Under the pieces are notes generated by a model that saw only the letters and a program-made list of their open reading frames with translations, was not told the origin of the DNA and ran no database searches. From positions 23,188,001 to 23,252,000 of the forward strand of contig NC_043020.1 in NCBI RefSeq assembly GCF_006345805.1: a stretch of 64,000 nt of DNA. The letters run 5' to 3'. The translations under genes were made by a program, and so were the position numbers. This stretch comes from Octopus sinensis. Taxonomy: Eukaryota. Positions 41,929 through 43,392 of this stretch are shown here, piece by piece (the first letter of the stretch is position 1; every line of letters starts with the position of its first letter).

Positions 41929-42531
41929 TCGATTTTGCCAGCACACAATTTTTGTTAAATGATATTCAGAAGAAAGAACCGTATCTTGCTGCTGGGTATT
42001 GAGTACAAAGATAAAGTATGGATCTTTTCGGTTTGAACGGCAGTTTTTTCTAGCGGTATCATATGAAATTGTCACCCATAATTATGACCCTAGAATCGAT
42101 CTATTGCATTTCAATCTGTTTTAGGGTTAGAGTTAGTTAGGGTTAGGGGTGGGGGAAGGGTATCTTTTTCTTCACAAATGTAAATAAACCCAATCTGTTT
42201 CTTAAACGAGGGACATATTCATACGGCACAGAATTTTTTTTACTTCAATAGACGTCAGTGATTGGTTGAAATAACAGAAATTGAAGAAAAAACAACAAAT
42301 ATCTTACAAACTATAGAATTTTCTCAATAAAGCCAAGAGAAAAAGATGTTTTATAAACACATTTTACCAGTATACGAAGTTTTAAAGTGTTTAGTTACGT
42401 GGAAATTATTTTTAAAAACTGCCGTTCAAACCGAAAAGATCCTCGATTTTGCCAGCACACAATTTTTGTTAAATGATATTCAGAAGAAAGAACCGTATCT
42501 TGTTGCTGGGTATAGAGTGCAAAGATAAAGT
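41929..42531. repeat. 89-bp direct repeats (41929-42017, 42443-42531) flanking the TIR element
   Basis: TCGATTTTGCCAGCACAC...AAAGATAAAGT occurs twice with 3 mismatches. Confidence 0.92.
42020..42442. mobile_element. Non-autonomous TIR element (29-bp perfect TIRs) with internal TTAGGG-like repeats
   Basis: GGATCTTTTCGGTTTGAACGGCAGTTTTT (42020-42048) / AAAAACTGCCGTTCAAACCGAAAAGATCC (42414-42442); TTAGGGTTAGAGTTAGTTAGGGTTAGGG at ~42121-42148. Confidence 0.9.
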
Positions 42532-43392
42532 GTAAATTTGGCATAAATAAGTGGTTTCATGATAAGGATAAAATATTTGAAGAAACGTTTTGTGCTGAGA
42601 AGAAATGACCCATTGCAAATCAAATTCTACCGACGCAGATTCTTCGTATTTATTGAAATGTTGACAGATGACGTTTCTACTGGGAGTTCATTTTTTTTGT
42701 GCTTTATGGCTTAAAGGATTGAAAAAAAATAAAACTTCTAGAATAAAAAAGATAGTTTAATAATTCAAATAAAGTACTTTGTTTTTTGATAGGAAGAATA
42801 TCTTAGAAATGCGAAAAAAGACAACGGAAAGCAAAGAAGCAAACAGAATATTTGATTTAAGGGAAAGATACAGGAACTAAATTACTTTATATGCGTTATA
42901 CAGTTTTTCAGAGCATAAAACCTCTCGGAGATATTTTGTTGCTCTGTTTCTTTTTGTAATGTGGCAAATATAAAAACATATGTATAGGAAATATGGCACC
43001 ATACATACTGCAAGATATTCGTGGAATAGGAAAATTACATTAATAAAATAAGTCATTATTAACTTCACATTATTTCAGCAATGTATTTGAGAGGAGAGCT
43101 GGTTGTTAAACAATTCTGTCTTTCTTCTTTTATATATATCAGATTTCGTTCCTATGTAAGAAATCAATGCTAACAACTAGAGTTTTGCTTCGTGCTGCAT
43201 GTATTTGCGTTATTAGTTACGCCGAGCGATTTCAAGTGTTCTCAGAGGAGAATCGTAATTTGCTTCTTGCCTACAAACATAAAATGGGAATGCACGTGCC
43301 GCTTACATGTCTAACATTCGCTGCGTTATCATACGAAAGAAATCTATTTTCCCACAAGACTGAGCTGATTCTATCTATCTATTCATCTCTCT

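Follow-up and report, generated by a model that had tools for sequence, protein, structure and literature searches.

The stretch of Octopus sinensis DNA analysed here (the window; 64,000 nucleotides, NCBI RefSeq assembly GCF_006345805.1, contig NC_043020.1, positions 23,188,001 to 23,252,000) contains at 42020–42442 a non-autonomous, TIR-bounded element of 423 bp without assigned strand. Its left TIR (42020–42048, plus strand) is 29 bp long and starts with GGATC, and its right TIR (42414–42442, minus strand) is the perfect complement of the left one over 29 of 29 positions, which gives the element GG...CC termini. This agrees with an earlier sequence-only reading of the same DNA, which had described a 423-bp element with perfect 29-bp TIRs and internal TTAGGG repeats. 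The latter form a telomere-type patch on the plus strand at 42121–42148, with three exact units that start at 42121, 42137 and 42143; the majority letter of the family at 42131 is a G, which produces a fourth unit. The window has two matches to a 24-nt TIR pattern, whereas 100 shuffles gave none, and the DNA of the element has a strong tendency to fold back on itself (DNA fold z = -6.8). The element is not overlapped by any reading frame of at least 120 aa, Rfam returned no match for it, and a search for tRNA genes found none. Neither BLAST nor the TIR pattern scan detected a second copy within the 64 kb, and among inverted repeats of at least 16 bp with an exact TSD of at least 4 bp there were two pairs, none of them GG-ended. 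Being short, TIR-bounded, without a coding frame and present elsewhere as many dispersed copies with the same ends, the element has the properties of a MITE.

The element is flanked on both sides by copies of the same block in direct orientation. BLAST reports a direct repeat of 89 bp (41929–42017 and 42443–42531, E 2e-38), which is the repeat described in the sequence-only reading with three mismatches and a 2-nt gap next to the left TIR. The full repeat is 91 bp long and abuts both TIRs flush, with a left copy at 41929–42019 and a right copy at 42443–42533 (both on the plus strand). What appeared as a 2-nt gap consists of a fourth mismatch plus one match. The four mismatches, given as left and right letters, are C/T at 41989/42503, T/A at 42000/42514, A/G at 42005/42519 and A/G at 42018/42532. 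All of them lie within the last 31 bp and the first 60 bp of the two blocks are identical, a clustering that was noticed post hoc and has a p of about 0.02–0.06. The right-block letters at 42514, 42519 and 42532 are the same in two of the sequencing runs described below (X19 and X20). The two block/TIR junctions share no useful microhomology. The view that the duplication is far longer than an ordinary cut-and-paste TSD is upheld, with 91 bp as the measured length.

To the left of the element lies an older repeat copy on the minus strand (41780–41946, ends approximate), which we take to be a SINE and which is about 70–84% identical to other copies in the window. In an alignment with these copies, the minus-strand SINE continues without interruption over the left edge of the left block; the part of its head at 41929–41941 matches other SINE heads, and the left block edge cuts through this head. 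In the right block the SINE head ends at the TIR. Since the SINE is continuous across the left block edge and stops at the TIR in the right copy, the block is pre-existing target DNA, and the earlier argument that a SINE head cut by the block edge marks the block as target DNA and not as an element LTR stands. Reading the element as a TRIM with the blocks as its LTRs was rejected on the same cut SINE head, on the lack of a visible outer TSD and on depth, with the block at twice the single-copy depth versus an interior that is about 10^5-fold deeper, which makes the block locus-specific. Alignment of the outer left junction against other SINE heads revealed no inserted footprint. A 2-bp gap in the SINE is located 2 bp outside the left block edge and could be an excision footprint, but gaps are also present elsewhere in this copy. 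A SINE-core unit of roughly 184 bp forms tandem arrays at three other places in the window, at 5336–6125, 53167–53837 and 59641–60337.

Several further repeats were seen in the window. A decayed LINE occupies 34760–39303 on the plus strand, with ORF1-like, endonuclease (35911) and reverse-transcriptase frames whose relatives are about 30% identical, and a direct duplication of about 400 bp with 94% identity (8325–9126) lies within an AGAT microsatellite and includes a LINE fragment. The closest named matches to a retroelement frame at 52687–53001 are from Octopus bimaculoides (75–90% identical); one top match is labelled E. coli, which was taken as a mislabel. Inverted structures include a 115-bp pair of 97% identity around about 700 bp at 44233–45166, without a TSD and possibly an inverted retroelement end, and long pairs with AT-rich microsatellite ends at 11269–14730 and 15740–18644 (685 bp at 97% and 280 bp at 92%). 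In the region 49078–50028 a unit of roughly 300 bp is present in nested, near-identical direct and inverted copies (94–100%), and there is a perfect fold-back at 49590. The region resembles a Penelope-type terminal repeat in inverted form that includes a hammerhead-like motif; Rfam gave no match to it at gathering score.

Public sequencing data bear on the reality of the duplication. Contigs or reads of four of 24 candidate runs (X1, X19, X20 and X21) were mapped to a 1341-bp stretch (41760–43100); X1 may be from the source sample, while X20 comes from another organism and another study. In X1 the contig of the left flank stops at 41958, after 30 letters of the block, and the right contig begins at 42473, where 30 letters remain before the first mismatch; these are the breaks expected of a k=31 graph at a true duplication. 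Depth in this run is 37.5 in the left flank, about 40.6 in the left branch, about 79.8 in the shared 60 bp and 39.5 in the right flank (the values for the left branch and the shared part were computed from bin means), and the outer junctions show no fork. The double depth of the shared block with single-depth branches indicates that both copies are present and makes an artefact of merged haplotypes unlikely. In X20 the right contig starts at the same place as in X1, and the depth (about 6.1 versus 5.9) fits the presence of a left branch. The right flank of X20 differs from the window at 6 of 625 positions and the two blocks differ from each other at 4 of 91 (Fisher p = 0.028, a value weakened by the fact that site 42503, one of the four block differences, also varies between organisms). 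By this comparison the 91-bp duplication probably predates the split of the window organism and the organism of X20. In X19 the right junction lies in a contig that passes unbroken through the block, which shows that duplication forks can be missed, and there are no contigs on the left copy or the left flank; this run was counted neither for nor against the duplication. The flanking-duplication structure is real: the sequence-only reading had made its claim depend on support from reads, and the duplication is seen as double depth in X1 and as a fork in X20. As a separate observation, the raw-read run X21 yielded 8 matching reads out of 12,895,792, with neither the element nor the SINE well represented; it carries the same species label as a run that contains 0.78 of the sequence words, possibly a label or filter problem.

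The element family is clearly very abundant. Contigs that match the 1341-bp stretch, SINE matches included, number 38,714 in X1, 22,767 in X19 and 17,881 in X20, and the loose ends of contigs pile up at 42020 and 42442. The summed depth of X1 inside the element is 2.3–6.0 million, compared to 39.5 in the flank; this is similar to the value in the SINE core and is not a copy number. Joints of an element end to an element start were present in 18, 11 and 10 contigs, but an organization in tandem arrays was not adopted as an explanation, since a family of this density should have close neighbours anyway. Among the rows listed, the copy in the window departs from the majority letter of the family at no fewer than 10 of 423 sites (about 2.4%). 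The blocks differ at 4 of 91 positions, or 2.2% per copy, and a comparison of the two divergences gives a Fisher p of 1.0. The match between the divergence of the element and that of each block copy suggests that duplication and insertion are of similar age, with wide limits. A description of a TTAGGG-bearing octopus MITE family was not found in the literature searched, of which Repbase, Dfam and subscription journals were not part.

The flanks of other copies give an indication of what the family normally duplicates. The eight plurality letters before the left TIR are CAATTTTG (211 contigs), AAAATTTG (173) and CAAAATTC (150) in three runs, and the plurality eight letters after the right TIR are CAAAATTT (98 contigs). 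Inspected by eye, these flanks contain a palindrome of an A-tract and a T-tract that is centred 4.5 bp from the element end and has C/G edges, in an AT-rich genome. The palindrome is repeated in direct orientation on both sides of the element, and its presence on both sides would be the signature of an 8-bp target. The agreement with the plurality is only 0.38–0.39 in three runs that share loci and are not independent, the rows by design omit a T adjacent to either TIR as the letter that matches the window, and the evidence comes from the 18 of 1055 loose-end rows listed. In these rows the left and right flanks of single copies are unpaired, and the TSD is deduced from them instead of being read directly. 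On these flank letters, we consider it rather likely that the family normally has a target duplication of 8–9 bp. Loose flanks have a median length of 255 letters in each of the four TIR rows listed, which is probably the upper limit of the measure, and there is a weak indication that the flanks of most other copies run on unbroken for 255 letters or more. If the whole family had 91-bp duplications with 4.4% mismatch, 77% of them would be expected to retain a shared 31-mer and to fork within 91 bp. This expected share falls in older copies, to 41% at 8% mismatch and 26% at 10%, and the mapped contigs may be biased towards such copies, for which the fork test is weak. Plurality flanks would not reveal long duplications made in a minority of insertions.

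Mutator-like elements have GG ends and a TSD of about 9 bp, and the element studied here may belong to that group. Merlin elements are described in PMC8101967 as having conserved 5'-GG termini, TIRs of 24–462 bp, TSDs of 8–9 bp and often internal tandem repeats, and 191 Merlin sequences are given there for Octopus bimaculoides. The octopus element resembles them in its GG...CC ends, in a 29-bp TIR that falls within this range, in the apparent 8-bp target of its family and in its internal short tandem repeats; it differs in that the copy at 42020–42442 has a 91-bp duplication and not an 8–9-bp TSD. It is thus classifiable and is probably a Merlin-like MITE to judge from its termini, TIR and apparent target, presumably mobilized by a Merlin (IS1595-type) transposase. 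No transposase with the TIR of the element was found. TIR scans gave 0 matches in metagenome contigs and 0 in viral contigs, and 13 exact 19-mer TIR matches in prokaryote contigs were taken as chance. The first of the two parts of the Repbase Merlin table (S1 Table of PMC8101967) contains no octopus family, and the 11 matches listed for GGATC and TTAGGG in the supplements of that paper were all unrelated passages.

If 8 bp is the norm, the locus reads as two target sites that are 83 bp apart, of which site 1 adjoins the right TIR and site 2 the left TIR. Site 1 would be 42443–42450 (plus strand), as derived from the apparent 8-bp family target, and the same letters are found at 41929–41936. 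Site 2 would be 42012–42019 (plus strand), which has its counterpart with one mismatch at 42526–42533. Neither 8-mer closely fits the target preference of the family. A mechanism that accounts for this arrangement is hybrid element insertion, and we find belief and doubt evenly balanced for a one-off flanking duplication that arose when hybrid ends were inserted at a distance of 83 bp from the donor site. In this mechanism an ordinary, gene-less cut-and-paste element, served by a Merlin transposase that normally duplicates 8 bp, would initially reside at one of the two 8-bp sites; which of its ends is the original one cannot be told. After replication the transposase would pair the left end of the element on one sister chromatid with the right end of that on the other. 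These hybrid ends would then join the second site, 83 bp off, on an element-free homolog or on a cleanly repaired sister. One product would be flank, block, element, block and flank, and the reciprocal product would be a deletion that was lost. In this scheme the Merlin transposase, the insertion event and an 8-bp target for the family are all inferred.

Flush junctions without microhomology are expected if the transposase made both of them, and the lack of a footprint at the outer left junction fits insertion into a homolog that was never occupied. The mismatches clustered at one end of the block would be explained only loosely, through allelic difference. An empty allele, a single-site allele and the reciprocal deletion were absent among the 15 of 60 joints listed from the four runs. 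The sequence-only reading had named insertion of the two ends into sister chromatids as one of its options, and this comes close to the explanation preferred here. Its first option, an unclassified mechanism with widely staggered nicks, is not supported by family flanks that point to an 8-bp target and mostly run on long and unbroken. It had also held that ordinary flanks at other copies would make the duplication a one-off event; the flanks point to that outcome, though indirectly, as unpaired sequences whose plurality letters agree at 0.38–0.39.

Precedents for hybrid insertion exist in other superfamilies. For the P element, Gray in 1996 and Preston, Sved and Engels in 1996 reportedly described male recombination accompanied by flanking duplications and deletions. 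The octopus locus is similar in that a single element remains, the duplication is flush to its end and there is no footprint. The P-element events were shown in laboratory flies, whereas the octopus case is deduced for a fixed natural allele of a different superfamily, with no reciprocal product observed. A duplication flush with the element end together with one element only, as found here, is what would be expected of hybrid element insertion, a term defined in PMC2775673 and PMC3744419. According to PMC3744419, in maize 3 flush tandem duplications were present among 7611 hAT insertions, with lengths of 116–118, 147–148 and about 1260 bp, which provides a baseline frequency for a process of a similar sort. 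The reversed-ends duplications of Ac/Ds in the same paper share with the octopus block that they are small (116–148 bp), direct and rare and end exactly at the termini. They differ from it in that each maize repeat starts with an element, giving two elements, whereas the octopus locus has only the middle one; a reversed-ends product was rejected for the octopus locus, as no element is present at the left edge of the left block.

Other mechanisms can be considered next to hybrid insertion. It is somewhat unlikely that two members of the family inserted independently at sites 83 bp apart, on different haplotypes or, after a local hop, on sister chromatids, and then underwent unequal crossing-over. 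Such an exchange would yield a chimeric element with exchanged 8-bp TSDs and a duplicated interval, which is exactly the structure observed and again without a footprint. The abundance of the family allows a close double insertion, and exchanged TSDs due to ectopic recombination are documented for Galileo in PMC2775673. However, both insertions must have had the same orientation and co-segregated, and the crossover must have fallen inside 423 bp. The TIRs are identical and there is no sign of a chimera, an observation of little power at about 2% divergence.

A repair or replication accident appears rather unlikely. Here a break at the TIR of an inserted copy, caused by aborted transposition or by a TIR hairpin on single-stranded DNA, would have been repaired by copying 83 bp of the other flank. 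The strong fold-back of the element (z = -6.8) is in line with such a break, and the cluster of mismatches at one block end is what error-prone synthesis might leave, but the template switch must have hit the very end of the TIR with no help from microhomology, and both junctions are precise to the base.

Quite unlikely is that the transposase makes long and variable target duplications in a real share of its insertions, like IS1549 and IS1634. This would be the simplest one-step account of a flush duplication that is as old as the insertion, and a minority mode would escape plurality flanks. IS1549 and IS1634 make direct repeats of 8–514 bp, as stated in PMC2266710, and IS481EU has TSDs of 4, 15 and 25 bp within one family, according to PMC10045372. 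These systems resemble the octopus locus in having a TIR element with an unusually long flush direct repeat; they differ in that the long repeat recurs across copies and in their termini (C... and TNT...AYA), whereas the octopus family gives an 8-bp signal and has a single known long case. Further points against recurrent long duplications are that the family flanks suggest an 8-bp target and are mostly long and unbroken, that a single locus is involved, and that Merlin and IS1595 elements are described with 8–9-bp TSDs in PMC8101967. The wider proposal, by which an animal DDE family, probably Merlin, would recurrently insert its two ends at positions separated by tens to hundreds of bases, besides using its 8-bp target, seems equally doubtful. 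Finally, an assembly artefact in which two haplotypes were merged through the repeat, or a TRIM-like element with the blocks as LTRs, is hardly credible: an assembly gap lies nearby (N run at 43582–43681) and no contig among those listed spans the whole duplication structure, but the single-copy flanks and left branch, the doubled shared part and the unforked outer junctions in X1 argue against both, the same fork in a second organism (X20) against an artefact, and the locus-specific block, the cut SINE head and the missing outer TSD against LTRs.

Most likely, then, the element at this locus is a Merlin-like MITE, ordinary and very abundant, whose flanking duplication is rare but of a type already known. 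As a one-off event it would be a natural fossil of alternative transposition in a mollusc, which is of modest importance, and a caution against taking one long 'TSD' as characteristic of its family. The size of the family makes the rate of flanking-duplication events easy to measure. If it is true that long duplications recur at several percent of copies, animal DNA transposons would have a mode of insertion that is new for them, and the family would provide a large natural data set on a mechanism that is called unexplained in the 2008 IS4 review (PMC2266710). Such a recurrent mode would also be a systematic source of small tandem duplications in octopus genomes.
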